From: Calditrichaceae bacterium
GTDB taxonomy: Bacteria > Calditrichota > Calditrichia > RBG-13-44-9 > J075
Direction of reading: 5' to 3'
NCBI GenBank assembly: GCA_013360445.1
Contig: JABWBP010000005.1
Span: forward strand, 20,487-84,486
DNA: 64,000 nt
Translations under genes and position numbers: made by a program
Shown here: positions 4,507-60,470 of the stretch, piece after piece
Layout of the letters: the number at the start of each line of letters is the position of its first letter
Position numbering within the stretch: the stretch's first letter is position 1
The notes under the pieces: generated by a model
Databases searched by the model: none
Seen by the model: the letters and a program-made list of their open reading frames with translations, nothing else
Told to the model about the DNA's origin: nothing

Positions 4507-5613
4507 TTAATTTCTCCTTCCCATTACCAGGACATCATGATTATCCACATATCCTACCGTTACCATGAGGTTGTCGCTTACAGCTAAACCTTCAAAAGAA
4601 CCGGTAGCCATCATTAAATCCTCATAAGTTTGCCAGCTTGATCCATTATAATGTACACATAATCCAAACGCACCGACGACAAAGATATTGTTCAAGGCGC
4701 TTCCCCGCACGCGGGTCGAGAAATAATTTGGTATGAGAATTTCTTCCCATTGATGTACTTTCCAAACCCTTAACCCACTTCCACTTACAAAAACCGGAGA
4801 GTTTATATCAAACCAGGTACTATGAAGACGACGGGATAATGTCCAATTCAAGGTATCAGCAATTCCGTTAAGCGCTATAGATAAGAGGCGGTATTCTCCC
4901 ACATAATACCGGTCAGAAACAACCGCCAAAATGGTGGTTTGCCCGGTTGCTCTATCTAAAACTCCCCAAATATCATTAATGTTGGTATGGGTGCCACTCT
5001 CAATCCGCTGCCAATTGATGCCATCGTAATAGAAGATATTGCCTTTTTTACCAACCCCCCAGAGATCAGTGTTTGAGCTTCCCCAAAATTGTCTGATTCC
5101 TCCGAATGTGGTATCATTCAGATCATCGAACAAGAATTTCCATTCACTCCAGCTTTGTCCATTAAATCTAATGACTTCACCTCCATCGGTTGTCCAAACA
5201 TCATTTGGAGCAAAAGCGAATACACTCTGCAATGTGCTGATTATGAAAGAGTTTGTGTTGAATATTTTCACTGGAATTTTTTTCAACTCCCACTTTTGCC
5301 CATCCCAATGGACTGCGTTATGGGGGTTATACTGGCCAGAGGAATCTAGTACATGAATTTCACCCACTGCCCAAATGTCGTTTTCATTAATGATACATAC
5401 ATCTTTCAGAATGCTGGCGTTTCCGTCCCCGAAACTATAGGTTGTCCAGGTAAAGTTATGGCTGGTAGTGTCGGGTTTATTGGGAGGCGGCGGGGGCGGC
5501 GGTTCGGTGCCGGATTTTTCACAACTGCAAGCCAGCAGGAGGAAATGTAAAATGTAAAATGTAAAGTGTAAAATGCGGTGAATACGAATTTCAGGAGACC
5601 GGTAGCGCATCAT
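4507..5613 (-). CDS. Lipoprotein with beta-propeller-like Trp-containing repeats (DIWAVG, NDVWTT, TDLWGVG, NDIWGV, NIFVVG).
   Basis: SD AAAGGAG lies before ATGATG. The signal peptide MMRYRSPEIRIHRILHFTFYILHFLLLAC has an LLAC lipobox, followed by a polyproline linker. There are about 5 repeats with G-x-W / WxxG spacing. The ORF track extends to 5781 but the SD supports a start at 5610-5613. Confidence 0.7.
   Translation of the reverse strand: MMRYRSPEIRIHRILHFTFYILHFLLLACSCEKSGTEPPPPPPPNKPDTTSHNFTWTTYSFGDGNASILKDVCIINENDIWAVGEIHVLDSSGQYNPHNAVHWDGQKWELKKIPVKIFNTNSFIISTLQSVFAFAPNDVWTTDGGEVIRFNGQSWSEWKFLFDDLNDTTFGGIRQFWGSSNTDLWGVGKKGNIFYYDGINWQRIESGTHTNINDIWGVLDRATGQTTILAVVSDRYYVGEYRLLSIALNGIADTLNWTLSRRLHSTWFDINSPVFVSGSGLRVWKVHQWEEILIPNYFSTRVRGSALNNIFVVGAFGLCVHYNGSSWQTYEDLMMATGSFEGLAVSDNLMVTVGYVDNHDVLVMGRRN
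5545..5575. repeat. Tandem heptamer array (TGTAAAA)x4.5 lying inside the lipoprotein signal-peptide coding region.
   Basis: aatgtaaaatgtaaaatgtaaagtgtaaaatg, seen directly. Its reverse complement encodes HFTFYILHF. Confidence 0.6.
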
Positions 5614-5941
5614 TGACTCCTTTATTTGAGTTTCGGGAAAATACGCATTCTTCCCGGTGGGAGGCGGGCGGATTTGTTGAAGAATCTCAGGCGGGTAAGG
5701 AGAGAAAAAAGCAGAATAGAATATATTCCTCTTTCTCGCGCAGAAACTGGCGCAGAAGAGAGGATTTGCAAGGCTGTTCATGGCATTCTCCCCATTGAAT
5801 CACCGTTGTTACTCCGGGGAAATCGGCCACTTCCTCTATGGATGGCGCGTCAGGGGGAGGAGGCGTTACAATATCCGTACCACCGGTTCAGGCAACCACG
5901 TTTCCTTATTACGGCAGCAAGTTAAACTCAGGCATTCTCAA

Positions 5942-5985
5942 AAAACATGACTTTGGTCAGGTTAAAACATGATTTTGGTCAAGTC
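5942..5985. repeat. Two tandem 22-bp direct repeats, AAAACATGAYTTTGGTCARGTY.
   Basis: aaaacatgactttggtcaggtt and aaaacatgattttggtcaagtc, adjacent to each other. They lie in the spacer upstream of the lipoprotein gene. Confidence 0.5.
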
Positions 5986-6080
5986 TTTTAAGGAGGGAGG
6001 GCGGCAACACCGCGATTAGAGCGGGAGAGGTTACGGCGGAAAGGGTGGTGGGAAAAACACGGGGTGATCGAATTGCTAAC

Positions 6081-6190
6081 TGGTTGAATGGTTGGATGGT
6101 TGGATGGCTAAGTGGTTAAACGGTCGGCTGGCCATTTAGCCATTTAACCATTTACTCATCCATCCATCAATCCATTACTCCATTACCCCA
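6081..6190. repeat. Long imperfect hairpin: TGG-word array (TTGGATGG, CTAAGTGG ...) immediately followed by its complement, a CCAT-word array.
   Basis: tggttgaatggttggatggttggatggctaagtggttaaacggtcggctgg | ccatttagccatttaaccatttactcatccatccatcaatccattactccattacc. It sits at the 3' end of the aminotransferase gene. Confidence 0.6.
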
Positions 6191-6200
6191 TGATACTCCC

Positions 6201-7487
6201 TCAATCTCGGTCGAAGCCCAGCAGCAGTTCCATCAGGCAGTCGATGTCATCTTCATTATTATAAAAGTGGGGGGAGACGCGGATGAAGCCGTTGCGCAGG
6301 GAAACGTGCACCCGGCGGCTCTTCAGGTGCTCGAACAAAGCGGGGGCGTTGGAATGGTGGAAGGTGACGATGCCGGAGCGGGATTCCGGCTCTAAGGGAG
6401 TGTAAATCCGGTAGCCGTTCTCTTGCAAACGCTCGATGAGGTAAGCGGTAATATAAAGAATGCGCTGCTCGATGGCGCGGGAGCCAATTTCCAAAAACAT
6501 CTCCAGGGAGGCGCCGGCCCCCGCCACGCCCGCGGCGTTGTAATTGCCCGGCTCGAAGCGCTCCGCAGTCGGCAAAAATTTCAGCTCATACTTGAAAAAT
6601 TCCCAGGAATCCTCCACGGAGAGCCAGCCTGCGGCCATGGGGTGGACTTGCTCGAAAATCCGCGGGGAGATGTACATGAACGCGGTTCCTAACGGCCACA
6701 TCAGCCACTTTTGCCCCCCGGAAACCAGGAAATCGATCCCGCTTTCCTGCACGTCCAAATGCAGCGCGCCCAATCCCTGGATGCCGTCCACGCAAAAAAT
6801 AACGTTATTTTCCCGGCACAGCCGCCCGATCTCTTTCAAATCGTTGCGAAAACCGTTCAAGAACTCCACGAAGCTGATGGAGAGCAGGCGGGTTTGGGGG
6901 CGAATCATGGCGGCGATATCCTCCAACTCGATCCGGCCGTCGCGCTGCTTTACGAAGTCGATCTCCACCCCGCGGCGCTGCAAGTTCAGAAAGGGGTACA
7001 CGTTGGAGGGGAATTCGAAATCGTTCAGCAGGATGCGCTCCCCGGGTTTCCACTCCAGTCCCTGCGCCAGCCAGTTCAGCCCCATGGAGGTGCTGTCGGT
7101 AAGGGCCAGGTATTCCGGCGCCGCGTTGATGAAACGGCCCAGCAAATTTTTGAAGCTGCGTTTGACCTCTACCAAATCCGGCCAGAACTCGATGTTGCCG
7201 CAGGAGCGTTCCCGGTTGTGGCGCTCGATGGCGGCAATCGCTTCGCTGTGCATGGGCCCCAGGGCGGCGTGGTTCAAATAGACCATCGCGGGGGATGGGG
7301 CGTTTATTTCGGCCAATTTGGGGCCGAAAGCGCCGGCCAAACCGGCGTGGTTATTTCCGTTGGATTCCCGGTACGGGGCTATCAAAGCCGGCTCCGCCGG
7401 GCTGAAGGTATGGGGGAATAAAGCGCGGTATTTTTTCCAATCGACTGCGGCGCCGCGCTTTTCCCTGCTCAGAACCATGTTTTCCAT
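6201..7487 (-). CDS. Class V aminotransferase-fold PLP-dependent enzyme (cysteine desulfurase / epimerase-like).
   Basis: SD GGAGAAG lies before MENMVLS. A PLP-lysine region, SGGQKWLMWPLGTAF, is present. The length and motif order fit the class V fold. The ORF track extends to 7544 with an earlier start. Confidence 0.8.
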   Translation of the reverse strand: MENMVLSREKRGAAVDWKKYRALFPHTFSPAEPALIAPYRESNGNNHAGLAGAFGPKLAEINAPSPAMVYLNHAALGPMHSEAIAAIERHNRERSCGNIEFWPDLVEVKRSFKNLLGRFINAAPEYLALTDSTSMGLNWLAQGLEWKPGERILLNDFEFPSNVYPFLNLQRRGVEIDFVKQRDGRIELEDIAAMIRPQTRLLSISFVEFLNGFRNDLKEIGRLCRENNVIFCVDGIQGLGALHLDVQESGIDFLVSGGQKWLMWPLGTAFMYISPRIFEQVHPMAAGWLSVEDSWEFFKYELKFLPTAERFEPGNYNAAGVAGAGASLEMFLEIGSRAIEQRILYITAYLIERLQENGYRIYTPLEPESRSGIVTFHHSNAPALFEHLKSRRVHVSLRNGFIRVSPHFYNNEDDIDCLMELLLGFDRD

Positions 7488-7769
7488 GTTGCTTCTCCAT
7501 ATCCCGGCGATATCACAGCTTCCGGACGCCGGATGGCAGACCATCGTTTATCATTCACCCTGAATGGCAGGCAGGTGAATTCGCAATAGTGAATTCGAAT
7601 CTAATTTTGAAAGGGAGATCACACCACGGGGCGGCGACGCCCCGGGTATTGGGGAGAAACCTCGCTCCGCGGGGATGCTCACCCGCTTCGCCGTAGGGGA
7701 AAAACGAGCCTGCCCTCGTCTCCGCCGCTCCCAATAATCCCCGGCCGGGCGCTCCCCTCCCGCCGCATT

Positions 7770-9419: not shown

Positions 9420-9521
9420 ACCTCAGCCCTGAGGCATTATAACGAAGTGAGCATAATTTATACAAAACCGTCACCCCAATTTTGATGATTTGCCCAAAAT
9501 GGCGGGTGGGAAAAATAAATA

Positions 9522-9602
9522 AGTGAGAAGTGGGAGGTAAGAAGTGGCAAGTAAGAAGTGAGAAGTTGCAAGTGAAAGGTGCAAATTCTCACTTGCAACT
9601 TA
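9522..9602. repeat. GAGAAGT-word heptamer array (8 units, NNNAAGT) ending in a short complementary segment.
   Basis: gtgagaagtgggaggtaagaagtggcaagtaagaagtgagaagttgcaagtgaaaggtgcaaattctcacttgcaactt, in the divergent spacer. Confidence 0.6.
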
Positions 9603-9656
9603 CCCCGTCTTGTTTGTAAAATCAACTGGTAAGCTCACCCTCCCAAAGGAGAAATA

Positions 9657-10058
9657 ATGACCTATGAAGATTGGGTAAGGCAGGTGCCAGATAGCATCAG
9701 GATTGATCCGCTATGGGCTTTTCAGGTTTATCCGAAGGCATTGTTTCTTTCGGATTTGGCCTGGGAGGATAGTGGAAAGATGTTAAAAGATGCCCGGGGA
9801 CGCAAAATCGCCGACCAATTGATTGACAGCGCCGGCTCTGTTAGCGCAAATATCGAAGAAGGTTTTGGCAGGGGATTTGGAAAAGACTATGCACGATTCT
9901 TGAGCATCTCTTTAGGCTCTGCTCGCGAGTGTCGCGGTTGGTACTATCGAGGAAGACGGTTGCTCAGCGACAATGTTCTCCGGCATCGATATCGTCTGCT
10001 GGATGAAATAATCGCCTTGTTAACAACACATATTCAAAAGCAGCGGAAGCATAAATGA
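9657..10058 (+). CDS. Four-helix-bundle protein of the TIGR02436 family (23S rRNA-intervening-sequence protein / Avd-like).
   Basis: SD AAAGGAG at 6 nt from ATG. The central motif SAGSVSANIEEGFGRGFGKDYARFLSISLGSARECRGWYY matches the family core (SNIAEG.GR ... FL.IA.GS). Length is 133 aa. Confidence 0.8.
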   Translation: MTYEDWVRQVPDSIRIDPLWAFQVYPKALFLSDLAWEDSGKMLKDARGRKIADQLIDSAGSVSANIEEGFGRGFGKDYARFLSISLGSARECRGWYYRGRRLLSDNVLRHRYRLLDEIIALLTTHIQKQRKHK

Positions 10059-10192
10059 GAAGTTAGAAGTGAGAAGTTGCAAGTGAGAAGTTGCAGGTTG
10101 CAAGTCAGAAGTGAATCTTCACCACCCTCTCACTTCTCACTTCCCACTTCTTACTTCCTACTTCTTACTTCTCACTTGCAACTTCTCACTCC
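10056..10192. repeat. Long imperfect hairpin: forward GAGAAGT-word array, then the reverse ACTTCTC-word array.
   Basis: tgagaagttagaagtgagaagttgcaagtgagaagttgcaggttgcaagtcagaagtgaatcttcaccaccctctcacttctcacttcccacttcttacttcctacttcttacttctcacttgcaacttctcac. It starts at the stop codon of the four-helix-bundle gene and overlaps the stop of the convergent ABC gene. Confidence 0.65.
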
Positions 10193-11163
10193 CTCATCCA
10201 GCAGCGCACCTCCTGGCCGGAAGGGAGAGAAAGCGGCGGCGGGGGATCGAGCCGGCAGCGTTCCGCCGCTTCCGGGCAGCGGGGGTGAAAGGGGCAGCCG
10301 GGAGGCAGGGCGCCCGGGGAGGGAATCTGGCCGGGGATGGGCGACAGCGCGCCGCGGGGTTTGTCCAAGCCGGGGATGGTTTGCAGCAGCAGGCGGGTGT
10401 AGGGGTGCTGCGGGGAGGCAAAAATCTGCTCGATGGAGGCGCTTTCCACGATCTGCCCGGCGTACATCACTAACACGCGCTGGCACACTTCCGCAATCAC
10501 CCCCAAATCGTGGCTGATGAAGATCATGCTCATCCCGCTCTCCCGCTGCAAATTTTTCAGCAGCTCCAGGATTTGCACCTGGATGGTCACGTCCAGGGCG
10601 GTGGTCGGCTCGTCGGCGATGAGGATTTCCGGGCGGCAGGCTAAGGCCATGGCGATCATGACCCGCTGCTGCAAGCCCCCGGAAAGCTGGTGGGGATACT
10701 GCTGAAAGCGCCGTTCGGGATCGGGGATGCCCACCCGCGCGAATAATTCTAACACTTCCCGCTGCGCTTCCCGGCGGGTTTTGCCGGAGTGGAGGGTCAG
10801 CGCTTCCGCGGCCTGCTCCCCGGCCTTGAGGACCGGGTTGAGGGCGCTGAGCGCCTCCTGGAAGATCATGGCGACGCGCCGCCCGCGAACTTTTTGCAGC
10901 GCTTTCTCCGAAGCCTGCCACAAATCCTCCCCCCGGAAGAGCACGCTGCCGGAGCGGTACAGCGCCGGCGGGGAGGGCAGCAGGCGCAGCAGGCTGAGGC
11001 AGGCAACGGTCTTGCCGGAGCCGCTCTCCCCCACAATGCCCAGGGCCTCGCCGGGGTGGAGATCGAAAGAAATGTCGCGGAGGATGGGCAGGGTTCCGTT
11101 TTCGCTGCGGATGTCGAGGTGGAGATTGCGGGCTTGCAGGATGGGAGTGGTTTTTTCAACCAT
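10186..11163 (-). CDS. ABC transporter ATP-binding protein, oligopeptide/dipeptide (OppD/DppD) type.
   Basis: Walker A GESGSGKT, signature LSGGLQQR, Walker B ILIADEPTTALD, and the C-terminal oligopeptide-type extension with cysteines. Confidence 0.85.
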   Translation of the reverse strand: MVEKTTPILQARNLHLDIRSENGTLPILRDISFDLHPGEALGIVGESGSGKTVACLSLLRLLPSPPALYRSGSVLFRGEDLWQASEKALQKVRGRRVAMIFQEALSALNPVLKAGEQAAEALTLHSGKTRREAQREVLELFARVGIPDPERRFQQYPHQLSGGLQQRVMIAMALACRPEILIADEPTTALDVTIQVQILELLKNLQRESGMSMIFISHDLGVIAEVCQRVLVMYAGQIVESASIEQIFASPQHPYTRLLLQTIPGLDKPRGALSPIPGQIPSPGALPPGCPFHPRCPEAAERCRLDPPPPLSLPSGQEVRCWMRE

Positions 11164-12030
11164 AGTAAAACAGCGCCCACAAAAACGGAGAAGTGAAAAT
11201 AATCGAATCGAAGCGGTCCAAAAAACCCCCGTGCCCGGGCAGCAGGGTGGAGGTGTCCTTCACCCCGGCGTCGCGCTTGAAGCGGGATTCCACCAGGTCG
11301 CCGATCTGCCCGAAAATCCCCACGATCGCGCCGCAGGCCAGGGAGTAGGTTAGCGGCAGGCCGGGAAGGAAAAGCTTTCCCAGCAGCATAAAACTGAGAA
11401 TCCCGAACAGCAGCCCGGCAATCGCTCCTTCCCAGGTCTTGTTGGGGCTGACCGCGGGCGCTAATTTGTGCTTGCCTAACTTGCGGCCGGCGGTGTAGGC
11501 GGCGGTGTCGCAAATCCAGATCGCGCCAAACATGACGATGATCAACCGCCCCCCGGCCGGGGAGATGGGCATCCCGAAAGTGGGCAGCCAGCTTTCCAGC
11601 CCGGTCAGGGAAACGCTCTCCGCCGCGGCGGGCATCCACTCCGCAAAATTCAGGCGCAGGCGCAGCAGGGTGGAGAGGAACAGGGTGATGTAAGCAAAGC
11701 CGGTAATCGTAAAAGTGGCGTTTTTGCTCGCCAGCCCTTCCTGCTTGCTCAGGTGCACGAATAAAATATACACCAGGGCCAGCAGCAGCAGGCTCTCCCA
11801 ATGGCCGGGATAGAAAAACGCCGCCAACAGAAAAAAACTGCTCAGCACTAACGCCGGCGCGCGGTAGGGATAGATCTGCTTGTGGTGGTACATGGTATAA
11901 AATTCCCACAGCGCCATTCCGTTGATGATCAAAATCAAGGCCAGGAAATAATAGCCGCCTAAGTAGGTTAGCAGCAGCAGCAGGGGAATTCCCCACAAAG
12001 CCACGCCGATTCGCTTGCCTAATTCGCTCA
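11156..12030 (-). CDS. cdsA: Phosphatidate cytidylyltransferase.
   Basis: Polytopic membrane protein with the C-terminal signature SPNKTWEG ... GHGGFLDRFDS. The likely start is the GTG preceded by AAAGGAG; the ORF track extends to a TTG at 12055. Confidence 0.85.
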
Positions 12031-12046
12031 CAATTTCTCCTTTGCG

Positions 12047-12165
12047 GGTGTCCAAGTGTTTAAGTGTTCAGGTGTTATAGTGTTTTAGTATTAAGGTGCT
12101 TTCCTAAATTTCGATCACAAGACGGCCATAACACATGAACACAATAACACTTAAACACTTGATCA
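12047..12165. repeat. GTGTT-word array, then a ~30-nt loop, then the AACAC-word array (long imperfect hairpin).
   Basis: gggtgtccaagtgtttaagtgttcaggtgttatagtgttttagtattaaggtgc ... ccataacacatgaacacaataacacttaaacacttgatcac. Confidence 0.6.
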
Positions 12166-12900
12166 CTGTAGTACCCGCGGAATGGTAGTGCGGAAATCCC
12201 GGAACAGGTGGTAGGCGTTTTCCAGGTAATCGACGGCGCGATCCCACTCCCGCTCGCTAACCGCCCGCAGCAGTTGGGCGATTTCTTCCTCAACGCCCAT
12301 AAATTGGTAGAATTGCACCGTATCCAGCAAACGGGCGATCACCCGCTCCAGTTCTTTTTGATTGCGCTCGGAGATGAGACGCAGGAGGGTCAGGTAGATA
12401 TTTTCGAAGTGCAGAATGAAGCTTTCTCTCATGCGCTCGTAGGATTTGCCGGGCGGCGCGGCGAGCGGGTCCGGGGCGAGGGCCGCCTCGGTGAATTTAT
12501 TTTGCTGCTGGCGGTTCAGCAGTACGAAGTTCATCTTGCGGATCAGGTCGCCGCGTAAAAAAGGTTTGGTGATAAAATCATTGGCGCCCATCCGTAACGC
12601 CTGCATCAGGGTGGCGCTGTCGGTGCGCGAGGTGATGATGATAACCGGGATGGCGCGGGTTTTTTCCATTTTCCGCAGCCGCTCCAGGGTCTGGAAACCG
12701 TCTAAGTGGGGCATGATCACGTCTAAAAAAATTAAATCCGGGCGGTACACCAGCGCCAGTTGGATGGCATCCTCTCCGTTGGTGGCGGTAGCCACCCGGC
12801 AATCCCTGCCGGTCAGCAGGTCGGATAGAATCTGCCGGGTAACCGGGTCGTCGTCCACCACTAACACATTGATCCTGGTTTTCTCTGGCTGCGGAACCAT
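12163..12900 (-). CDS. Response regulator with a receiver domain and a C-terminal ~120-aa helical domain of unknown output.
   Basis: VLVVDDD ... D ... the receiver-fold pattern with conserved Asp and Lys positions. The C-terminal half is helical with no recognisable DNA-binding motif. Confidence 0.75.
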   Translation of the reverse strand: MVPQPEKTRINVLVVDDDPVTRQILSDLLTGRDCRVATATNGEDAIQLALVYRPDLIFLDVIMPHLDGFQTLERLRKMEKTRAIPVIIITSRTDSATLMQALRMGANDFITKPFLRGDLIRKMNFVLLNRQQQNKFTEAALAPDPLAAPPGKSYERMRESFILHFENIYLTLLRLISERNQKELERVIARLLDTVQFYQFMGVEEEIAQLLRAVSEREWDRAVDYLENAYHLFRDFRTTIPRVLQ

Positions 12901-12912: not shown

Positions 12913-13887
12913 TTACAAATACCGGTCCACAAACTCTTTCAGCTCGAACACCCCGTCTTCCAGGATAATCTTATCGGCCATGGAAATGGGGGATTCCTCG
13001 AAATAAATATTTTCTACTTGCAAGTTATCCGATAATTTACTCACCAACTCTTTGGGATTGTTTTGCACAAACCGTACCGGGTAAGTCCTTTTTAACAGCA
13101 CTTTGGCGGTTTCCCCGGCCACGAAAAGGGATTTATTCATGTGCTTTGCCATGACGGCGATGGCGTGGGTGCCGGTTTTGTTCACAAAAGTGGTTTCCGT
13201 AAAGCGGTCGGTGCCGGTTAATACAAAATGGCACTCCTCCACCGCCCGGGCGATATCCGCATCCGGCACCAGGCGCACCTTGATCCCGGCTTTGGCGAGG
13301 CGGTAGGCCATTTGGGTGCCTTCATTCAACGGGCGGCTTTCGGTGCAGATCACCCGGAAACGCTTTTTCTGCCGCCGCGCTTCCATCAGAATGGATTCCA
13401 CCACGCTGCTGGCGGAGTGGGTCAGGATGACGTGGTGGTCGAGAATCAGGCGGCATCCCCAGCGGGTAATCACCTTCACGTTGTCTTCCGCGCGCTGGCG
13501 GATTTGAACGATCTCTTCCAGGGTGGCGTCGCGGATGGAGTTGATATCCTTCTGCTCTTTGGGAATATTCTGAATGAATATCAATACGTGGCGGGTGCGG
13601 TTATAGATCAACGCCATCAACGGTTTGGCGCGCACCAGGGCGTTGCTCAACTTGGAGAGAGCCTGAATCAACTCGGTGCGGTTTTTGTACAACTGCCGGC
13701 GAACAAAGTCATCCACAATATCTAACGCCTGGTTGGCCAGGTAAATGGAACCGTGCGTGGAATCATCGCGGATTTTGGCGACGTCCGTTCTCCAATACTC
13801 TAAGCCGTCATCTTCCGAGCCATTCAATTCGTCGATTTCTTTACTTGCCTTGATTTCTTTGCTTGCTTTGCTACTCGACATTTTCAT
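12913..13887 (-). CDS. eIF-2B alpha/beta/delta family protein (sugar-phosphate isomerase-like, MtnA/e2b2 family).
   Basis: Family-typical segments: VILTHSASSVVESIL, RVICTESRP, GTDRF. About 320 aa. Confidence 0.65.
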   Translation of the reverse strand: MKMSSSKASKEIKASKEIDELNGSEDDGLEYWRTDVAKIRDDSTHGSIYLANQALDIVDDFVRRQLYKNRTELIQALSKLSNALVRAKPLMALIYNRTRHVLIFIQNIPKEQKDINSIRDATLEEIVQIRQRAEDNVKVITRWGCRLILDHHVILTHSASSVVESILMEARRQKKRFRVICTESRPLNEGTQMAYRLAKAGIKVRLVPDADIARAVEECHFVLTGTDRFTETTFVNKTGTHAIAVMAKHMNKSLFVAGETAKVLLKRTYPVRFVQNNPKELVSKLSDNLQVENIYFEESPISMADKIILEDGVFELKEFVDRYL

Positions 13888-14191: not shown

Positions 14192-14250
14192 AGGCTGTCA
14201 AATATAATGATTTCAGATACTTAAAATCAAGCTGATTTTCTTGCTGAAAA

Positions 14251-14333
14251 GTTGCGAGTGAGAAGTGGCAAGTGGCAAGTGGTAAGTGGCAAGTGAGAGG
14301 TAGTAATTCCACTTCCCACTTGCCGCTTCCCAC
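14251..14333. repeat. GAGAAGT/GGCAAGT-word array followed by its complement (hairpin).
   Basis: gttgcgagtgagaagtggcaagtggcaagtggtaagtggcaagtgagaggtagtaattccacttcccacttgccgcttcccac. Confidence 0.6.
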
Positions 14334-14426
14334 TAAATTATTGACATCCGCTTTGCAAATGGCGGAGAGGATTAGTTATATTGGCTCCCGCCATTTTGAG
14401 GGCGCCGGGCTGATAAGCGAATAAAT

Positions 14427-15294: not shown

Positions 15295-15370
15295 AACGTG
15301 ATGCGTAAAACATAATGCGTAATAAATACGCAATATGCAATACGAATTACGAGTTATGCATCACGTTTCA
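15295..15370. repeat. CGTAA-word array followed by the TTACG-word complement (hairpin).
   Basis: acgtgatgcgtaaaacataatgcgtaataaatacgcaatatgcaatacgaattacgagttatgcatcacgt. Confidence 0.55.
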
Positions 15371-15408: not shown

Positions 15409-16407
15409 GTGGAAACCCCCTTAATGGTGGTGGGAGATGGAAACGGGAATTTTACCGAGGTTCCGGAACTGAATATGGCGGGGGTCAATTTTGTGAAGCC
15501 GCTTCTGCCCCGGGCGGAAGAGCTTATTCCCCTTCCCCCGGAGGCCCGGCTGGCGGCGCTGCCGGGACGGAACGCCATCGGCTACGATGCGGACCTGGAA
15601 AAATTTATCCCCCTCCGGGAATATGGGGGAACGCGGGTGTTCCCGGCGGCGGCAATATTGCCCGATACCTGCCTGCAACTCCTGCGAAGCGCGTTTTCCA
15701 TGGTATTGGATTCCCCGCGCCTGCCGAACGGAAATTTTACTGCGGTGGGACGCCTGGAAGACCGCTACGTGGTCGCGGCAACGCCGTTGCAGCAAGCGCT
15801 TTTTCCCGATCAGCAGATTTTCGTGATCCAGCCGGATAACGCCGCCTCCGAAACTGTTTTCGCCGCAGCATCGCACTTGAAAAGCGTCCCCCATGGCCTG
15901 GTTCGCTTCGAGATAAACCACCTGGAGCAGTTGCCGGCGGCGGCGGAAATGATCGGTGAAATTCGCTCCCAAACCGAGAAAGGGGCGGTACACCTCGCCG
16001 CGAGCGTGTTCGATCCCCGGCGCATAAAAGCGTGCTGCCGCGCCGGCTTAGACGGCCTGGAAGCGATCACCCATTCCGCCCGGGAAGAGTATTACGAAAA
16101 ATTCGCCGACCTCTCGTTCGACAACCTGCGGGAATCCCTGAAAGCCGTCAGCCAGGCCGGCCGCCGCGCCATTCTACGCTATCGCGTCTTCCCGGGACTG
16201 ACTGACCATCCCCTGGAATTCGAAGCGCTGAAAAAGCTGCTCTCCGAAACCGGGGTGGAATGGATTCGCCCGGTCAATCTGAACGTGGACCCGGAATGGT
16301 ACATGGATCGCCTGATGCTCTGGACCCTCCCGCGCACCCAGGCGGGCATGCGCAAGTGGCTGAAGACCATCGCTGAAAAATTTCCCCACATCCGGGTGGG
16401 ATATTAG
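15409..16407 (+). CDS. Hypothetical protein (332 aa); no recognisable family.
   Basis: SD AGGAGA at 6 nt from a GTG start. Coding-like composition with no motif recognised. Confidence 0.55.
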   Translation: METPLMVVGDGNGNFTEVPELNMAGVNFVKPLLPRAEELIPLPPEARLAALPGRNAIGYDADLEKFIPLREYGGTRVFPAAAILPDTCLQLLRSAFSMVLDSPRLPNGNFTAVGRLEDRYVVAATPLQQALFPDQQIFVIQPDNAASETVFAAASHLKSVPHGLVRFEINHLEQLPAAAEMIGEIRSQTEKGAVHLAASVFDPRRIKACCRAGLDGLEAITHSAREEYYEKFADLSFDNLRESLKAVSQAGRRAILRYRVFPGLTDHPLEFEALKKLLSETGVEWIRPVNLNVDPEWYMDRLMLWTLPRTQAGMRKWLKTIAEKFPHIRVGY

Positions 16408-16424: not shown

Positions 16425-16492
16425 GGAGTGCAAAACTTCAGTTTTGCACTCCTAAAACGCAGCCAGTGTGCAAAACTGAAGTTTTGCACTCC
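16425..16492. repeat. Two REP-like perfect hairpins, GGAGTGCAAAACTTCAGTTTTGCACTCC and GTGCAAAACTGAAGTTTTGCACTCC.
   Basis: 10-12 bp perfect stems with 2-4 nt loops. The same motif recurs in about 10 other spacers. Confidence 0.7.
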
Positions 16493-16511
16493 TATAAGAA
16501 ACGGGGTGTTT

Positions 16512-18886: not shown

Positions 18887-18934
18887 CAATTTAATTCGCA
18901 ATTGGCAATTACCAATTGGCAATTGCCAATTTAA
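18887..18934. repeat. Palindromic CAATTG-heptamer array.
   Basis: ccaatttaattcgcaattggcaattaccaattggcaattgccaatttaaaag, in the convergent spacer before ftsZ. Confidence 0.65.
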
Positions 18935-45446: not shown

Positions 45447-48400
45447 TCAAAAATTAAACGAATGGCGGAAACGGAAGCGGAAGTCATTGGTGATTTGCTC
45501 ATTATAGAACGGGTTGAACTGAAATTTATTCCACTCCACTTCAAACAGAAGGTTGTACAGCAGCCGGTATTCCATCCCAAAGGTATGGTTGACGCCTAAT
45601 TTGGATTCTTCGTATCCCAAAACCAGCTCGCCGGTATAGGTGAGGTAAAGATCCCGCAGCAAATATTTACCCATCGTTATGCCTGAGCTATGGAGTAATA
45701 GTAACGCCGGATCAATATTATTGTTCAAATTCGGGGCTAAAAAGGTGGTGGAGTTCAGTTGCGCCCGGTCCTGGAAGCTGAGGTAAAAAAGATTCGCGGT
45801 AAAATTGGAGCGCAACCGGACATAATCCACGTGCAACCCCCGCTCCATCTGGCGTTCGATGGGCCGGAAGAGGGGCCGGATCAAAAAGTTCTCGGTCATG
45901 CTCAAACCCACTTCCCCGGCCTTATAGTGCAGGTTTCGCACACTGTATCCCAGGTAAGAGAGCACCTGTTCCTGGGTTTCCCCGGTAACCTCATCCCGGG
46001 AAACCAGTTTGAAGCGAAAGTCCTCCCAGCGCCCCTTGGAAACCTCTTTTTTGGTTACCGGGTCGATGACGTATAATACCAGGTAGATATCCCGGGGGAA
46101 ATTCCCCGTGGAGTCGCGCACAGTCGTGTAAGCCCGGCCATACACCTCCGGAAAAATCTCGAAGCGATTGAATTCCGCCCCGAACCGCTCTACCCGGAAC
46201 TTTACATCCAGGTACTCCACCTGCCCGCGGGTGGATTCCACCGCTCCCTCCACCCGGAAAGTTTCATCCGCCAATCGCCCGCTAAAATCCAGCCCGGCAG
46301 AGGCGTTATCGATATCCAGCTCCATAAAAACCTCCCCCACGTAGGCCGGCACCTTCACGAAGTAGTGGTTATTCCTGCCGGGCAGGGAGTTGATGTCCCA
46401 GCGCATATTCATCAAAAAATCCACCACTTTATTCTCTTCGTAAAATTTTTCATCCTCGTCGTACATGCCGATGAAGGGGAAGGTAACCCGGCAATTGTAA
46501 AGCGTCAGGGTTCCCCGGGCCAGGGGCAGCTCCGGGGGGCCGGCGAAGTAGAACTTTTCCCCCGGTTTTTTGCCGCTCGCGGCAAAGTAGCCGATATCGC
46601 CTTCCTCCATCATGCCGGGAATGGCCAACGGAATGCCCTGATCGGCGGTTTCCAGCGCCAGCACCCCAAAGTTCAACCCCACTTCGTCGAATATCCAGGG
46701 AGCAAGCCGGGTGGTGTCTATCGTAACCTCGGGCAGGTTGTAAATGCGCGCCCGGCGGTTACCCACCAACCCTTCGATGGTTTTGATATGGATGAAATTG
46801 CCCGCCCCGGTTAGCTCCACCTCGGCTTTCAATTGCGCCAGCGCGGGGATGACGCCGTCGAATTCCAGGGAACCGTTGAAAATTTGCAGGCGCATCGCCT
46901 CTAAGGAAGGGCGGGAGCGGGTTCCGATCACCCGCGCGAAGAAGTTCCCCTCGCAATCCGGGTTTTTGAAATAGGGCAGTAGTTTCGGCAGTTCTGCCAG
47001 CACGTTTCCCCGGGCGGTGATGCGCATATCCATGGGCGCGTCGGGATCGACCCCGATGAACCCTTCCCCCTCCACGGTGTACTCATCGCGGTTGATATAG
47101 ATGAATTTCCGCACCCGCACGAGGTGGTTGCTAAGCTCCCAAAACGGTTCCCCGGCCGCCACGGAATCTTCGAAAGTCAGGATGATGGTATCGAAAGGAT
47201 TGTTTTTGAACAGCCCGTTTTTGATCTGCACGTCCCCGTAAATGGCCGGGCGGCTCATGGGACCGGCGGCCGCAATGGTGTAATTGAAGTTTCCGCGAAT
47301 GATCTCCGGGTCGCGAAATACCGTCTCGGCCAGGAAATTGCTCTCCACGTTCTCCGCCCGGATGGCCAGGTTCAGGGAATCGGTCTGCAAGTTCCAGGCG
47401 AAATCCGCGTTGAAAACCTGCTCGCCGTTCAGCCGCACCCAGAAATTGTCGAAATTCAAGCGATAATTCTCCAGGGTTCCGGAGAACCGGGTGTCGTAAT
47501 ATCCCACCCGGTTCACGATAAAATCCGTCGCTTCCAGGTTGAACTTCAGCCGGGGATTGCTGACCGTCCCTTCCACGGCCATCTCTCCCTGGATCACCCC
47601 TTCTTCGAAAACCGCCCCGATAGTGGGGCTATTTTGCAGGTAATCGGCGATAGAGAAGCGCTCGATGCGGATATTTCCCCGGAAAGGCGCATCAGGGCGG
47701 GCGCCGGAAAACAGATCCCCGTGGAATAGATTTTCCGCATCGATGCGGGTGAACATGCCCTCTTCGGAAGAATTTATTTCAAAGTCGCCTTTGAGCGGTT
47801 GCGGGGCGGTGGCAGCGCTGAATTTGCCCTTGATTTTCTGGTTCTCCATAAAAATATCCCGGATATTGGCGGAAAGCGAGAAAACGTCGCGCTGGCGATC
47901 GCCGCTGATGATATTCATGTTTGCATGAAGAAAGTTGTAGGGGCCGGAAAAATTGAAATCGACTGCGCGCCCGGCCACGAATCCGGCCGCCAGGGGATTC
48001 CGGGTAAAGCGCAGCGCCGGGAAATCCTTCACGTCCAAAACGGCCACGTTGGGATCGCTGAACAGGTTTTTGATCGTGCCCTTGACGGCAAAATCATCCG
48101 CCAGGTCTTCGGAATGGAGGCTGAAGTCGAAAAGCTGGTCCTGCAGGATGAATGGTCCCCGCCCTTTTACGAACAGGCTGTCCTGCCCGTGTACCTGGTA
48201 TTTGAAGGTTCCCCCGAACAGTTTGGCGCGGAAGTCGCCCCCGAAATCGGTATGCAGCAGGATTTTCCCGCCGTTCAGGGCGTCGAAAATGCTAAAGTAG
48301 CTCGCCGGCACGGAAATGTCGGAGTCCAGGTCGAGGTCGATTCGATTTTCCGCAAAATTCACCTCCCCGGTTCCCTGGGTGCGGAATTTCATAAAATCCG

Positions 48401-49622
48401 CCCGCAGGTAGGGGAATTCCATCAATTTGCTGCGGGTATTGTAATTCAGGCGCAGGCGCACGGTATTGAAGGGCGCCACGGCGTACAACAGCGCCGGGCA
48501 GCGCAGGTCCGCGGCAATGTCGAGGGAGTTGAACGGCCCGGTAAACGCGGCGCGGGCGGCAATTTTTCCCTCGTAGGCGTAATCAAAAATGGAGTGTGAT
48601 TTTTTGAGATTCGCAGCGGAATAGTTCGCCACTTCTAAGTTCCAGTCCGCTTCCGGGTGGAAAAGGTCCGCAACCGCGCCAAAAAATTGCCCCGTTCCGT
48701 CTTCGATCTCGCAGGCAAACGGCTCGATGACCACCCCGCGCCGGGCGAAGCGCAGGGTAAGCTCCGCGGCCCGGGCGTGCTGGTTATGGATGTAGATGGA
48801 AAAATCCCGCACCCGGATCGCGCCGTCAAAAGCGAGGCTGTCCGGAGAGAACCCCCGGTTGGTGATTCCCACCCGGCCGGCCAGCCGGGCGTTTTCCAGT
48901 TGCAAGAAGCCGAGTTTCCAGAAGGGCCAGTTGGAGGTAATGATACATTCGTTGAGGGCCAAATCCGCGGAGAATTTCCTGGCCGGAAAATCCACAGTCC
49001 CGGTTAAGTTGATAGAAGAATTGGCGGCGCCTAAGAATTCTCCTTGCAGATTCAAATCCGCCTGCTCCAGGTGGGAGGAATAAGCCACCCGTCCCGCCAG
49101 GCGGTTCAGGAGGGGGAATTCCTTGCCTCCCGGCGCTTTCAGAAGGATGCCCCCATCTTCAACGGAGATAAAATTAATGCCCGGAAATTCGCGGATGCTG
49201 GAAAAAATATCCTGGAAAAGTTTTTCCATGGGGATTGCGCCGCTTCCCGCGAGGGCGGGTTTCTCCGAATAATAGAGGTTGAATTTGGGATTGACTAAGG
49301 TGACCGAAGTGAGGCAGTGGGGAATTTGAAATTTGTGGGTGATGAGTTTAAAGGGATTGAACCCGATGCGGATCTCTTCTAATTCCAGGCTGAAGGTGGC
49401 GTTTTCATCGGCGGCGCGGAGTTTGTAAAATGATAACGAATTGAAGCCCGCGGAGAAATCGTTGATCAAAAACAACTCCCCGAAGTAGGGCTGGAGTTTT
49501 TTGACCAGCAGGGTCCTTATCTCGGTTTTGACCGGGGTGAAGGTCCAGAGCAGGTACCATCCCAGGGCTACCGACATAAGGGTAATGAAAAGGTAAAAAT
49601 GCCAACTGCGCTTGTGTTTCAT
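45447..49622 (-). CDS. tamB: Translocation and assembly module protein TamB-like (AsmA-family, DUF490 C-terminus).
   Basis: About 1390 aa, N-terminal TM anchor, long beta-rich body, and a conserved C-terminal DUF490-like segment. Start at MKHKRSWHFY. Confidence 0.8.
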   Translation of the reverse strand: MKHKRSWHFYLFITLMSVALGWYLLWTFTPVKTEIRTLLVKKLQPYFGELFLINDFSAGFNSLSFYKLRAADENATFSLELEEIRIGFNPFKLITHKFQIPHCLTSVTLVNPKFNLYYSEKPALAGSGAIPMEKLFQDIFSSIREFPGINFISVEDGGILLKAPGGKEFPLLNRLAGRVAYSSHLEQADLNLQGEFLGAANSSINLTGTVDFPARKFSADLALNECIITSNWPFWKLGFLQLENARLAGRVGITNRGFSPDSLAFDGAIRVRDFSIYIHNQHARAAELTLRFARRGVVIEPFACEIEDGTGQFFGAVADLFHPEADWNLEVANYSAANLKKSHSIFDYAYEGKIAARAAFTGPFNSLDIAADLRCPALLYAVAPFNTVRLRLNYNTRSKLMEFPYLRADFMKFRTQGTGEVNFAENRIDLDLDSDISVPASYFSIFDALNGGKILLHTDFGGDFRAKLFGGTFKYQVHGQDSLFVKGRGPFILQDQLFDFSLHSEDLADDFAVKGTIKNLFSDPNVAVLDVKDFPALRFTRNPLAAGFVAGRAVDFNFSGPYNFLHANMNIISGDRQRDVFSLSANIRDIFMENQKIKGKFSAATAPQPLKGDFEINSSEEGMFTRIDAENLFHGDLFSGARPDAPFRGNIRIERFSIADYLQNSPTIGAVFEEGVIQGEMAVEGTVSNPRLKFNLEATDFIVNRVGYYDTRFSGTLENYRLNFDNFWVRLNGEQVFNADFAWNLQTDSLNLAIRAENVESNFLAETVFRDPEIIRGNFNYTIAAAGPMSRPAIYGDVQIKNGLFKNNPFDTIILTFEDSVAAGEPFWELSNHLVRVRKFIYINRDEYTVEGEGFIGVDPDAPMDMRITARGNVLAELPKLLPYFKNPDCEGNFFARVIGTRSRPSLEAMRLQIFNGSLEFDGVIPALAQLKAEVELTGAGNFIHIKTIEGLVGNRRARIYNLPEVTIDTTRLAPWIFDEVGLNFGVLALETADQGIPLAIPGMMEEGDIGYFAASGKKPGEKFYFAGPPELPLARGTLTLYNCRVTFPFIGMYDEDEKFYEENKVVDFLMNMRWDINSLPGRNNHYFVKVPAYVGEVFMELDIDNASAGLDFSGRLADETFRVEGAVESTRGQVEYLDVKFRVERFGAEFNRFEIFPEVYGRAYTTVRDSTGNFPRDIYLVLYVIDPVTKKEVSKGRWEDFRFKLVSRDEVTGETQEQVLSYLGYSVRNLHYKAGEVGLSMTENFLIRPLFRPIERQMERGLHVDYVRLRSNFTANLFYLSFQDRAQLNSTTFLAPNLNNNIDPALLLLHSSGITMGKYLLRDLYLTYTGELVLGYEESKLGVNHTFGMEYRLLYNLLFEVEWNKFQFNPFYNEQITNDFRFRFRHSFNF

Positions 49623-49624
49623 TC

Positions 49625-49705
49625 CATTGCTCGTACTGGATGCTCGATGCTCGATATTCGATGTTTGATGCTTGAAACGGGCCTGTTGCATCGGGCATCG
49701 GTGAA
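49625..49705. repeat. ATGCTCG-word array with a GCATCGG complement (same family as 21626-21733).
   Basis: ctcgtactggatgctcgatgctcgatattcgatgtttgatgcttg ... ttgcatcgggcatcggtg. Confidence 0.55.
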
Positions 49706-49770: not shown

Positions 49771-49808
49771 TAGAATTGGCAATTACCAATTGCCAATTGG
49801 CAATTAAA
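49771..49808. repeat. CAATTG heptamer palindromic array.
   Basis: tagaattggcaattaccaattgccaattggcaattaaaaac. Confidence 0.65.
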
Positions 49809-52629: not shown

Positions 52630-52765
52630 GTGCAGAACTGAAATTTTGCACCACAGGAGCCGCTTTGAGGCGCTCCAGCCGTTTTAATTGACAATTGGCA
52701 ATTAGCAATTGGCAATTGCCAATTATACCCTGATTGAGCGTGCAAAACTGAAGTTTTGCACTCCT
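52630..52765. repeat. A REP-like hairpin variant, then a CAATTG array, then a REP-like hairpin.
   Basis: gtgcagaactgaaattttgcac ... ttaattgacaattggcaattagcaattggcaattgccaatta ... gtgcaaaactgaagttttgcactcc. Confidence 0.65.
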
Positions 52766-58678: not shown

Positions 58679-58884
58679 GTCGTGCAAGTATTCTGCGGGT
58701 ACCGGAAACGCAATACTCAACGCTATAACTACCGGGGCGGAAATTCATTATCAGAAGTAACTATTCAGGCGTTTTGCCACAGAGGCCACAGAGAGCACAG
58801 AGACATAAAAAAATTCCTAATCAAATCACAAATACAGGGATATAAGTCTCTAATGAATAGTGACTATCAGAAAACATTAAATTA

Positions 58885-59140
58885 ATACTGGTATCCGGTA
58901 TTAATGCGAATTGAATTAAGGATTGGAGTAAATATATGGGATTTGGAGGCTGATCGGTACTTAACATCCCCCCTGTCCCTCCTTCAAAAGGGGGAAATCA
59001 AGGGCGAATGCGAAGCTCCCCCCTTTGAAGGGGGGGACAGGGGGGATGTCGTAAGCCGATTTTAAGATAAATCCGATACAGTACTTTCAACCCTTAATTC
59101 TCATTATTGGCATCCGGTATCCGGTAGTAATCGTTATATC
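58885..59140. repeat. Composite palindromic element in the 475-bp clpP-clpX spacer. It has a flanking direct repeat GGTATCCGGTA[T/G]TAAT, terminal inverted repeats around GAATTAAGG / CCTTAATTC, and a central ~31-bp inverted repeat rich in C and G tracts.
   Basis: catcccccctgtccctccttcaaaaggggga ... tcccccctttgaagggggggacaggggggatg, with the flanks read directly from the sequence. Confidence 0.55.
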
Positions 59141-59153
59141 CAGTCACCTAACT

Positions 59154-60416
59154 ATGAAAAACAAAGATATGAGCAAGCGAGATTATTTCGATCACGAATC
59201 CTACTGTTCTTTTTGCAATCGCAAAGCCACCCAGGTGGCGCAATTGGTTACCGGGGCCTCCGCCAGTATCTGCGACCAGTGCATCCAGAGCGCCAACGAA
59301 ATTTTGCGCAATTCCCGCTCCTCGCGCTTCCAGCGGGGAGAGTTGCGGCTGCCCAAACCGGCGGATATCAAGAAATTCCTCGACCAGTTCGTCATCGGGC
59401 AGGAGCGCGCCAAGATCGCGCTCTCCGTGGCGGTCTATAATCACTACAAACGCATCTCCTTCGACGCCCAGGCCGATGACGTGGAAATCGACAAGAGCAA
59501 TATTCTCCTCATCGGCCCCACCGGGGTGGGTAAAACCCTCTTAGCCCAGACCCTGGCGCGGCTGCTGCAAGTGCCCTTCTCCATCTCCGACGCCACCACT
59601 CTTACCGAGGCCGGCTACGTGGGCGAAGACGTGGAGAATATCTTAGTGCGCCTGTACCAATCTTCCAATTATGATATTCCCTCCACGGAACGGGGCATCG
59701 TCTATATCGACGAGATCGATAAAATTGCCCGCAAGGCCGGCAGCCCCTCCATCACCCGCGACGTTTCCGGCGAAGGGGTGCAGCAGGCGCTGCTGAAAAT
59801 TTTAGAAGGCACCGTATCCGCCATTCCCCCCAAGGGCGGGCGCAAACACCCGGAAGCGCCGATGATCCACATCAACACCCGCAATATTCTTTTTATCTGC
59901 GGGGGGGCGTTCGAGGGCCTGGGGGACATCATTCGCCGGCGCATCGGGGAAAAATCGGTGGGATTTTCCGCCAAAATCAAATCCGTCAAGCACCTCAAAG
60001 AGGGGGAGGTGATGGAGTTCGTGGAGCCGGAAGACCTGCTCCATTACGGATTGATCCCGGAGCTGATCGGGCGGTTGCCGGTTTTCGTGGGATTGCAGGA
60101 ATTGAGCGATTCGGAAATGTTAGCAATCCTCTCGGAGCCGAAGAATTCCCTGATCAAACAATACAAAAAACTGTTCGAGTTAGAAGGCATCGAGCTGAAA
60201 TTTACCGAGAAAGCCCTGCGGGAGATCGTCAAAATGTCGCAGAAGCGGCGCACCGGGGCGCGGGGCCTGCGCAGCATCCTGGAAAAGGTGATGGTCAACG
60301 TAATGTTCCAGGTACCCTCGCTGGGCAACGTAAAGGAGTGCCTGATCACCGAAGAGGTGATCCTGGGCAGCGCCGAACCGGTCTTGAAGCAGGGGAAATC
60401 GCGCCAGTCCGCGTAA
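59154..60416 (+). CDS. clpX: ATP-dependent Clp protease ATP-binding subunit ClpX.
   Basis: N-terminal zinc-binding domain CSFC...CDQC, Walker A GPTGVGKT, and the GYVG pore loop. Confidence 0.95.
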
Positions 60417-60427
60417 GGATAAACACC

Positions 60428-60470
60428 TAATTGGCAATTAGCAATTGGCAATTGTCAATTGCCAATTTAA
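60428..60470. repeat. CAATTG heptamer palindromic array.
   Basis: taattggcaattagcaattggcaattgtcaattgccaattta. Confidence 0.65.

Follow-up and report, generated by a model that had tools for sequence, protein, structure and literature searches.

The window analyzed here is a 64,000-nucleotide stretch of a Calditrichaceae bacterium genome (contig JABWBP010000005.1, positions 20,487 to 84,486; G+C ~56%), and our subject is the tandem 7- and 8-nt words that recur in its intergenic spacers, commonly as an array (W) followed by its reverse complement, rc(W), the two arms forming a hairpin. Gene identities assigned with Pfam place in this window a dcw cluster running from mraW/ftsL to ftsZ (18995-37259) and a bamA-skp-lpxD-lpxC/fabZ-lpxA operon (38683-45383), both on the minus strand. 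Most of the word hairpins lie in these two operons, which are among the most conserved in bacteria. Rfam and tRNA scans of the window gave no matches, and it contains no rRNA. A preliminary description, prepared from the bare sequence, had reported such a hairpin in nearly every spacer, with a different word at each locus.

Arrays were called with Tandem Repeats Finder (TRF) at periods of 7 or 8 nt and at the multiples 14, 16, 21, and 24, and neighboring calls were merged, giving 44 arrays across the window at TRF matches of 69-100%. They occupy 195 bp/kb of non-coding DNA and 2.6 bp/kb of core coding sequence, a difference of ~75-fold. From 5545 to 60470 there are 32 spacers with a length of 40 nt or more; together they hold 38 arrays covering 1342 of 5391 bp (25% of spacer DNA), whereas 100 dinucleotide-preserving shuffles of these spacers contain a mean of 0.40 arrays and 7.5 bp (~0.1%), with a maximum of three arrays. 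The spacer enrichment implied by the preliminary description thus holds at the scale of the window, as does the mutual complementarity of the arms: all 18 regions that we folded as RNA have z scores of -2.2 to -9.6 against 200 dinucleotide shuffles per region, 13 of the 18 being unmatched by any shuffle, and the word hairpins have fold energies of about -15 to -69 kcal/mol. Its account of their frequency was too generous. Tandem-word hairpins are widespread, but a two-arm or self-complementary word hairpin is present in 19 of the 32 spacers (59%), and three further spacers carry only an unrelated palindrome of the repetitive extragenic palindromic (REP) kind. Nor does each locus have a word of its own, as about eight families recur: GTGTTNNN (GTGTT) at five loci, AAGT-core at six (both the GAGAAGT and the GTGAAAA words belong here), AATTGSC at five, CGTAA and GATGC at two each, together with GCAGTAG, TGGWTGGN, and GCGCATR.

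Each word has four to five core positions conserved above 0.9 and two to three variable positions at ~0.5, close to random, and the pairing of the stems is broken every 7 or 8 nt by a 1x1 mismatch or, in the GTGTTNNN family, by a 3x3 loop. The cores may be conserved because each unit has to be able to pair with every unit of the opposite arm, or because a protein recognizes them. The G-rich arm stands 5' and the C-rich arm 3' in all 15 two-arm hairpins (p = 6e-5; 8/8 families), an asymmetry that is the same whichever strand is read. This G>C rule also holds for most hairpins in other phyla, the exception being a CAGCTNT family in two acidobacterial loci (L015 and L017); a more general rule of a G/T-rich 5' arm fails outside the lineage of the window and was discarded. 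At nearly every dcw and lpx/bam gene a hairpin starts at or within the stop codon and ends 10-70 nt before the next start codon, and the loops of the ~19 hairpins lacking an open reading frame (ORF) measure 0-60 nt.

Within the dcw cluster, the ftsQ/ftsA spacer contains a (TCGATGC)n/(GCATCCR)n hairpin at 21625-21735 (TRF 93% and 89%; z -7.5) with one mismatch per heptad and fold energies of -48.9 kcal/mol on the plus strand and -61.2 on the sense strand. It is followed by a GTGTTNNN hairpin in the murB/ftsQ spacer (22524-22611; z -4.9) and by a GCAGTAG heptamer hairpin in the murG/murC spacer (25003-25127; z -9.1), in whose loop a REP-like palindrome lies at 25062-25083 and whose first word supplies the TAG stop codon of murG (25118-25127). 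Further along are an AAGTGNA hairpin of the AAGT-core family in the mraY/murD spacer (29218-29337; z -3.2), a GTGTTNNN hairpin that begins at the murF stop codon in the murF/mraY spacer (30463-30524; z -4.9), and, in the murE/murF spacer (31933-32095; z -2.2), a GTGTTNNN hairpin at 32040-32095 accompanied by an AATTGCC array at 31933-31952. The convergent DUF2339/ftsZ spacer has a self-complementary AATTGSC array (18893-18931; TRF; z -3.6). In the second operon, a GCGCATR heptamer hairpin occupies the lpxC-fabZ/lpxA spacer (39489-39575; z -5.5), the longest hairpin of the window, again GTGTTNNN, the lpxD/skp(ompH) spacer (42209-42338; z -9.6; -68.7 kcal/mol on the plus strand, -58.8 on the sense strand), and a CGTAA-core heptamer hairpin the skp/bamA spacer (42960-43062; z -6.2).

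The same architectures are found outside these operons. A TGGWTGGN 8-mer hairpin at 6078-6195 (arms 6078-6122 and 6130-6195; TRF; -60 kcal/mol on the plus strand, -46.3 on the sense strand, z -4.4) stands directly downstream of the stop codon of an aminotransferase gene (6201-7544, minus strand), its 5' arm with a GC skew of +0.70 and its 3' arm with -0.69. The GTGTTNNN 8-mer hairpin at 12048-12166 (TRF; z -4.8), between cdsA (11156-12055) and a response-regulator gene (12163-12900), pairs through the word core and leaves the three variable positions as 3x3 loops. An AAGT-core hairpin of AAGTGGC/GCCACTT words lies in a divergent spacer at 14247-14335 (z -5.9), a CGTAA-core heptamer hairpin at 15296-15366 (TRF; z -4.8), and self-complementary AATTGSC arrays at 49778-49808 (TRF), 52685-52726 (z -3.4; flanked by REP-like palindromes at 52630 and 52740), and 60429-60468 (z -4.0).

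Four loci that had been listed as hairpins are not, or barely, of this form. The GATGC array that adjoins the AATTGSC array at 49778 (49628-49675, previously placed at 49625; TRF) is mostly single-arm and pairs over only 12 bp, and three others are single arms. One of these, sense (AGATTGA)n on the minus strand at 23562-23586 (TRF), runs across the murC stop codon with no complement and is identical in the close relative L001; another, (GTGAAAA)n on the minus strand at 41110-41133 (TRF; earlier placed at 41066), encodes the last lpxD codons and the stop codon, a TGA within GTGAAAA (41113-41133). The third, (AAATGTA)n at 5543-5575 (earlier 5545), is coding DNA on the minus strand, where it reads ...ILHFTFYILHFLLLAC, a hydrophobic core with a lipobox, that is, a lipoprotein signal peptide. 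The same (AAATGTA)n word array also occurs downstream of ftsZ in a 68%-identity relative (L004 5581-5649). Single-arm arrays on the minus strand in the murG/ftsW spacer (26286-26503; TRF) are interrupted by two insertions: an exact 23-nt sequence, CCCTTCGACAAGCTCAGGGCAAG, is found twice there, at 26241-26263 and 26503-26525, each copy interrupting a heptamer array, and it is present in neither L001 nor any other comparison locus. It is similar to the "small dispersed repeats" that have been described from within the heptamer arrays of Nostoc.

One array pair of the AAGT-core family encloses a gene. This cassette (9521-10196, plus strand; heptamers GAGAAGT/GCAAGTG), located between a tetratricopeptide-repeat gene and an ATP-binding cassette (ABC) ATPase gene (10186-11163), consists of a first hairpin (W 9521-9583, rc(W) 9586-9606; fold z -3.2), a Shine-Dalgarno-like AAAGGAG, an ORF at 9657-10058, and a second hairpin (W 10056-10116, rc(W) 10128-10190; z -7.1). 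The ORF matches PF05635 (Pfam, 9.6e-16) and TIGR02436 (2.1e-18), the four-helix-bundle "23S rRNA intervening-sequence protein." Upstream of this ORF stands a G-rich array with the AAGT core, and the cassette closes with the C-rich complement.

The association of this gene with word arrays extends well beyond the window. We compared 17 homologous loci, nine at 61-77% identity and eight remote (29-49% over the aligned part). The nine closer ones lie between unrelated housekeeping genes, the named ones in KSB1 and Anaerolineae; the eight remote ones lie on plasmids of Nostoc, Anabaena, Calothrix, Pseudanabaena, and Riemerella, and their homology rests on the records' own annotation, as tblastn against the plasmids gave no match at 1e-6 and needed E up to 1 to give any. 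The four-helix-bundle gene is directly bordered by heptamer arrays in 16 of the 17 loci, from at least five phyla and including Calditrichaceae, KSB1, Anaerolineae, Nostoc, Anabaena, Calothrix, and Riemerella, while arrays are rare in the other spacers of these loci. Typically W is upstream and rc(W) downstream, beginning 0-3 nt from the upstream stop codon, and the flanking word varies with the protein subfamily (GAGAAGT/GCAAGTN, GCAGGAG, TCAGGAG, GGTGACA, GGTTYAA). Looking in all comparison loci for distant W and rc(W) arrays that enclose some other cargo, we recovered four-helix-bundle cassettes only. The cassette of the window aligns with loci L101, L102, and L103 over both arms and ORF, and its terminal 3' arm TACTTCTTACTTCTCACTTGCAACTTCTCACT is identical at 32 of 32 nt to L101 and L102 despite an ORF identity of ~70% (DNA). 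The ORF-less hairpin at 14251 (14247-14335) shares an exact 20-nt run with the cassette arms of L092 and 18 nt with L102; hairpins of the non-AAGT families share only 6-10 nt with any cassette arm. In L101 (53-2811), L102, and L103 (205-2770), the four-helix-bundle homologues and their heptamer arms lie between a reverse-transcriptase (RVT_1) gene and cas1, and on an Anabaena sp. 90 plasmid (L110 1-1634) a homologue lies between cas6 and cas4, behind 275 nt of GGTGACA/GGGAACA repeats. These reverse-transcriptase- and cas-adjacent genes may be chance insertions, or may indicate a functional link like that of Avd with its reverse transcriptase.

Close relatives show how the arrays change. L001, L002, and L234 are about 91% identical to the window in nucleotide sequence, L001 being collinear over 21 kb, and every comparable spacer in these relatives keeps an array or hairpin. 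Length differences between the window and L001 (8, 14, 19, 39, 70, and 20 nt) are mostly whole words: at 29218 L001 is shorter by 14 nt, or two units, at 30463 longer by 7 + 39 nt, in the 31933-32095 spacer it has one extra 8-nt unit plus 19 nt more of the AATTGSC array, and at 14247 it has 70 and 20 nt more, while at 15296 it retains the CGTAA family in heavily rearranged form. Arm lengths vary independently of one another. Three sites have switched word family among close relatives. The murG/murC spacer has GCAGTAG in the window and GTGTT in L001 and L002, where murG ends differently, and the murB/ftsQ spacer has GTGTT in the window and CGTATT/AATACG in L001; both swaps replace the whole interval from the last upstream codons to the next start codon. 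The expectation that the architecture would persist while the sequence turned over is borne out by these comparisons.

The cleanest replacement is at the 3' end of the ABC ATPase gene, which is 94% identical in the sister species L234. There the window has the 676-nt cassette and L234 a 190-nt ORF-less hairpin (-116 kcal/mol) of the same GCGCATR family as the 39489-39575 hairpin. Homology between the two breaks at about 10197 and resumes at about 9520, which are the outer ends of the arrays, so that the cassette, arms included, behaves as one unit. In both genomes the ABC gene takes its stop codon from the first word of the insert, TGA in GTGAGAAGT (window 10186-10196) and TAG in GCGCATAG (L234 2860-2868); where the first word provides the upstream stop codon in this way, orthologues differ in their C-terminal residues. 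Within the species, ten metagenome copies are identical in unit number upstream of the ORF, and the copy compared in full (L082, 98% identical to the window) differs by two single-nucleotide polymorphisms and one 7-nt unit. Given these identical unit numbers, we reject hypervariable, phase-variation-type loci. A metagenome-contig scan with FtsQ gave a single distant (51%) locus and so no population series. The species represented by the window, L001, and L234 are found side by side in sample 3300009873 and in many Logan runs.

More distant relatives lack the arrays. In L003 (69% MurC identity) and in L024 and L032 (51% MurC), dcw spacers in the same gene order are 0-30 nt long, or longer but plain, and carry no arrays; the spacers of L235 (71% ABC ATPase identity) are plain too. 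Compact, plain spacers in these relatives at 51-71% identity mark the hairpins as insertions of a genus-level lineage that are dispensable for the operons. The same architecture reappears sporadically, and densely in the dcw loci of some Thermoanaerobaculia/Acidobacteriota (L015, L017, L025) and Phycisphaerales (L075, L076), whereas most other loci are without it.

The reading that we favor, with moderate confidence and at somewhat better than even odds, is that the word hairpins are inverted 7/8-nt arrays of an STRR-like kind (short tandemly repeated repetitive sequences) that act as exchangeable insertions colonizing the intercistronic spacers of one Calditrichaceae lineage, and that they come in cargo-less and cargo-bearing forms resembling the intervening sequences (IVSs) of 23S rRNA. 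Hairpins would have been inserted as discrete units rather than grown in place from spacer sequence, each insert taking up the space between the stop codon upstream and a point shortly before the following ribosome-binding site. As AAGT-core arrays are the arms of a conserved cassette with PF05635 cargo, we read the ORF-less hairpins as cargo-less relatives, or solo arms, of IVS-like selfish elements; a solo hairpin is what recombination between the two direct W arrays of a cassette with the hairpin-ORF-hairpin layout would leave behind. Replication slippage would then lengthen or shorten arrays in whole-word steps. The arrays would be transcribed together with the host operon, and the long, imperfect stems into which they could fold are, if rRNA IVSs are a guide, plausible substrates of RNase III or stabilizers of the upstream cistron. 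The uniform chirality may be a legacy of how the cassette is laid out, with a purine-rich array upstream of the ORF, or a polar process acting on single strands may impose it.

Several observations weigh against this interpretation. The window has one four-helix-bundle gene against about 20 hairpins, and an HMM of the family matched nothing in all 80 dcw loci, the array-rich loci of Thermoanaerobaculia and Phycisphaerales among them. A direct tie to the cassette exists for the AAGT-core family only: GTGTT, CGTAA, AATTGSC, GATGC, TGGWTGGN, and GCAGTAG have no demonstrated cargo form, and GCGCATR is linked to the cassette solely through the common insertion site in L234, so the shared origin of the non-AAGT families is something that we infer. 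At that one clean swap junction we found no transposase, target-site duplication, or other mobility signature, and the swaps could be recombination between diverged alleles rather than transposition. Of the two marks of miniature inverted-repeat transposable elements, inverted arms are present, and no target-site duplication is visible at this junction in a comparison made between two occupied sites. At the RNA level, stem mismatches on the sense strand comprise 29 G.U and 36 A.C, showing no G.U excess, and in six of nine operon hairpins the antisense strand folds at least as stably as the sense strand. With neither a G.U bias nor a sense-strand stability advantage, we have dropped the claim of visible selection on mRNA structure.

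These last two results also bear on the alternative that survives best, which we nevertheless consider unlikely: that the hairpins are selected intercistronic RNA stem-loops, serving as 3' stabilizers, RNase III sites, or anti-polarity devices that set mRNA half-lives and stoichiometry. A precedent exists in SRPS (selective RNA processing and stabilization), where a stable stem-loop directly follows the stop codons of individual cistrons in a polycistronic operon (PMC4423207). The position of the hairpins at the stop codons of nearly every dcw and lpx/bam gene, their very stable folds at -25 to -69 kcal/mol, and the retention of an array or hairpin in every comparable L001 spacer even after a change of family all fit such a role, and a G-rich arm transcribed first would mean that the C-rich arm is never single-stranded, which would avoid Rho loading. 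The lack of a sense-strand signature argues the other way, as do the 0-30-nt unstructured spacers of the same operons in related genera, where hairpins are evidently not required, and the identical architectures in divergent and convergent spacers (14251 and 10056). Nor are the hairpins terminator-like: a terminator and promoter scan of the dcw region matched shuffle expectation, with no word hairpin among the terminator-like sites, and we rejected intrinsic termination on these grounds. Rho avoidance by the single-arm arrays was likewise not supported, their sense strands (n = 11) splitting into six G-rich, four C-rich, and one equal. SRPS stem-loops are a class defined by experiment; ours are drawn from sequence and are dispensable in related genera. 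A stem-loop role can coexist with mobile, IVS-like insertions as a secondary, exapted function.

An improbable alternative, to our mind, is that the arrays are a local mutational by-product: simple sequence repeats (SSRs) grown by slippage and inverted by intrastrand template switching, with no mobility and no function, and tolerated only in spacers. Whole-word indels, independently variable arm lengths, and the missing G.U bias are what such a process would leave, and heptamers are the most over-represented class of long SSRs in many bacteria, with slippage proposed as the cause (Mrazek 2007, as cited in PMC4679880 and PMC4692102). Against it stand identical words, even in identical variant order, at unlinked loci and in other organisms, of which the 32-nt and 20-nt exact runs are examples, and the replacement of whole hairpins by another family at orthologous sites with clean breakpoints. 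Position-specific conservation of the word core is unexpected from neutral homogenization, and one chirality in 15 of 15 hairpins also counts against this alternative. Arrays also do not automatically become hairpins, for a viral-contig scan for four tandem copies of GTGTTNNN returned 120 loci, none with a complementary arm or a four-helix-bundle gene.

We give a similarly low standing to the idea, raised in the preliminary description, that the arrays are candidate binding sites for a protein, here one that recognizes the core of each word; the pentameric four-helix-bundle protein, with one word per subfamily, would be the first to consider. Words in which four to five conserved positions keep a fixed spacing and the positions between them are free would suit such a protein, the cassette arms are better conserved than the ORF, and the flanking word differs by subfamily, including GACAGAT in Coxiella (PMC4990558). 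Set against this are at least eight cores in 64 kb with one four-helix-bundle gene in view, and a sequence search of solved structures that found no relative; the requirement for unit-to-unit pairing explains the conserved cores equally well. The preliminary description had also suggested elements of the REP type or of the bacterial interspersed mosaic element (BIME) type, which here would have been mobilized by a REP-associated tyrosine transposase (RAYT); the hairpins are indeed intergenic, palindromic, numerous, and inside operons, but the suggestion is very improbable and largely refuted, since the families share no palindromic consensus, their tandem-word stems are 60-140 nt rather than 20-40, the genome has a separate, typical REP-like palindrome, and general Pfam scans of the window found no RAYT (IS200/IS605-like) or other transposase among the genes scanned. 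We further rejected a CRISPR array, given contiguous repeat units of 7-8 nt rather than 24-48 nt with unique spacers, and an attC reading on anatomy.

The elements were earlier thought to match no described class, and this is not the case, as two known systems come close. STRRs are tandem heptamers that form hairpins between co-transcribed genes of filamentous cyanobacteria, for example hupS/hupL; their function is unknown, and transcript stabilization or translational coupling has been proposed (PMC2670836). Such heptamer arrays change length in 7-nt steps between strains (PMC4679880). The arrays of the window resemble STRRs in having at least three tandem 7-nt units, several words per genome, an intergenic location, hairpin formation, and whole-unit length change. 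They differ in belonging to a host from Calditrichota rather than to filamentous or heterocystous cyanobacteria, in their words, in including 8-nt families, and in that the inverted two-arm form is the rule here and the exception among STRRs; we found neither the G-rich-5' chirality nor a link to a four-helix-bundle cassette described for STRRs. Intergenic heptamer arrays of several words are also known from other phyla and are missing from the orthologous spacers of close relatives, with some inverted pairs noted (PMC4679880, PMC4692102). These long heptamer SSRs (TAACTGA in Beggiatoaceae, Cyanobacteria, and Bacteroidetes; GGGAATC in Xanthomonas) are likewise intergenic, near start or stop codons, and phylogenetically patchy, but mostly consist of one dominant word in direct repeats, whereas the window has many families, mainly as inverted hairpins.

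The second system is the 23S rRNA IVS, which carries the S23p/PF05635 ORF in Coxiella, Leptospira, and Xanthomonas. In Coxiella it has a 28-bp terminal stem cut by RNase III, an S23p/PF05635 ORF in the loop, and two to three strain-variable repeats of a heptamer (GACAGAT) that lie upstream of the ORF, and IVSs are regarded as selfish, possibly once-mobile elements (PMC4990558). Our cassette likewise has a PF05635 ORF flanked by complementary arms with tandem heptamers upstream. It differs in lying between protein-coding genes rather than in helix 25 or 45 of 23S rRNA, in arms that are word arrays of 60-140 nt instead of a 28-bp stem, and in that most hairpins of the window lack an ORF; RNase III excision, which has been shown for rRNA IVSs, is by analogy a plausible fate of the transcribed stems here. 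REP/BIME and enterobacterial repetitive intergenic consensus (ERIC) elements are comparable as structured, transcribed intergenic insertions inside operons that vary among close relatives, but they have a consensus sequence without word periodicity, whereas word hairpins share only architecture and core. In the literature that we searched, which was incomplete, we found no link between four-helix-bundle genes and heptamer arrays in general.

The arrays also disturb gene models and assemblies. Mechanical ORF calls overrun them at the 5' ends of lpxA (38683-39552), a tamB-like gene (45447-49691), an 809-aa ORF (60431-62860), and the DUF2339 gene (16428-18839), and annotation pipelines are likely to over-extend all four; the lpxA call (289 aa) runs through the 39489-39575 hairpin, and its hexapeptide domain does not begin until about residue 47. 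In assemblies, the arrays are sites of breaks or masking: L087-L091 end at 2947, many contigs terminate 45 nt beyond the stop codon of the four-helix-bundle gene, and two array spacers of L001 hold runs of N (13109-13208 and 15815-15937). Many representative four-helix-bundle proteins are truncated, at 72-125 aa.

The window and its relatives hold other structured DNA as well. The REP-like palindrome, GTGCAAAACTGAAGTTTTGCAC, often extended to GGAGTGCAAAACTGAAGTTTTGCACTCC, has nine copies against 0 expected (16428, 16468, 20222, 20292, 25062, 52630, 52740, 54649, and 54793), often paired, some of them differing from L001 in presence or absence. A 290-nt nested-palindrome insertion (L001 18309-18598) lies upstream of the DUF2339 gene in L001, at the position of a REP-like pair in the window. 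Between murD and ftsW, where the genes of the window overlap, it carries a 62-nt structured insertion (L001 7188-7249). A long G/C-rich hairpin not made of words, ACATCCCCCCTGTCCCTCC...GGGGGGGACAGGGGGGATGT, occupies 58960-59050 in a 475-nt spacer with short ATCCGGT repeats on both sides. The low-G+C island at 2958-5781 (43% versus about 56%), whose two long ORFs match nothing in Pfam, may have been horizontally acquired.

The abundance of heptamer STRRs and the four-helix-bundle ORF in rRNA IVSs have both gone unexplained for ~35 years, and our findings link the two, through word arrays that form the arms of a cassette conserved across at least five phyla and through the common insertion site of a hairpin and a cassette. 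For this one lineage, they indicate that its dcw and lpx/bam operons have been invaded between cistrons, with the practical consequences that assemblies break at the arrays, ORF callers overextend, and the 3' ends of genes are rewritten by new stop codons. It is a more tentative proposal, and one that we hold to be possible rather than probable, that inverted heptamer hairpins, classic STRRs included, are the arms or solo remnants of one widespread, hitherto unrecognized class of mobile IVS-like cassette, each PF05635 subfamily reading its own word. If this were true, a single class would account at once for the words, for the conservation of their cores, and for the IVS protein that has so long gone unexplained.

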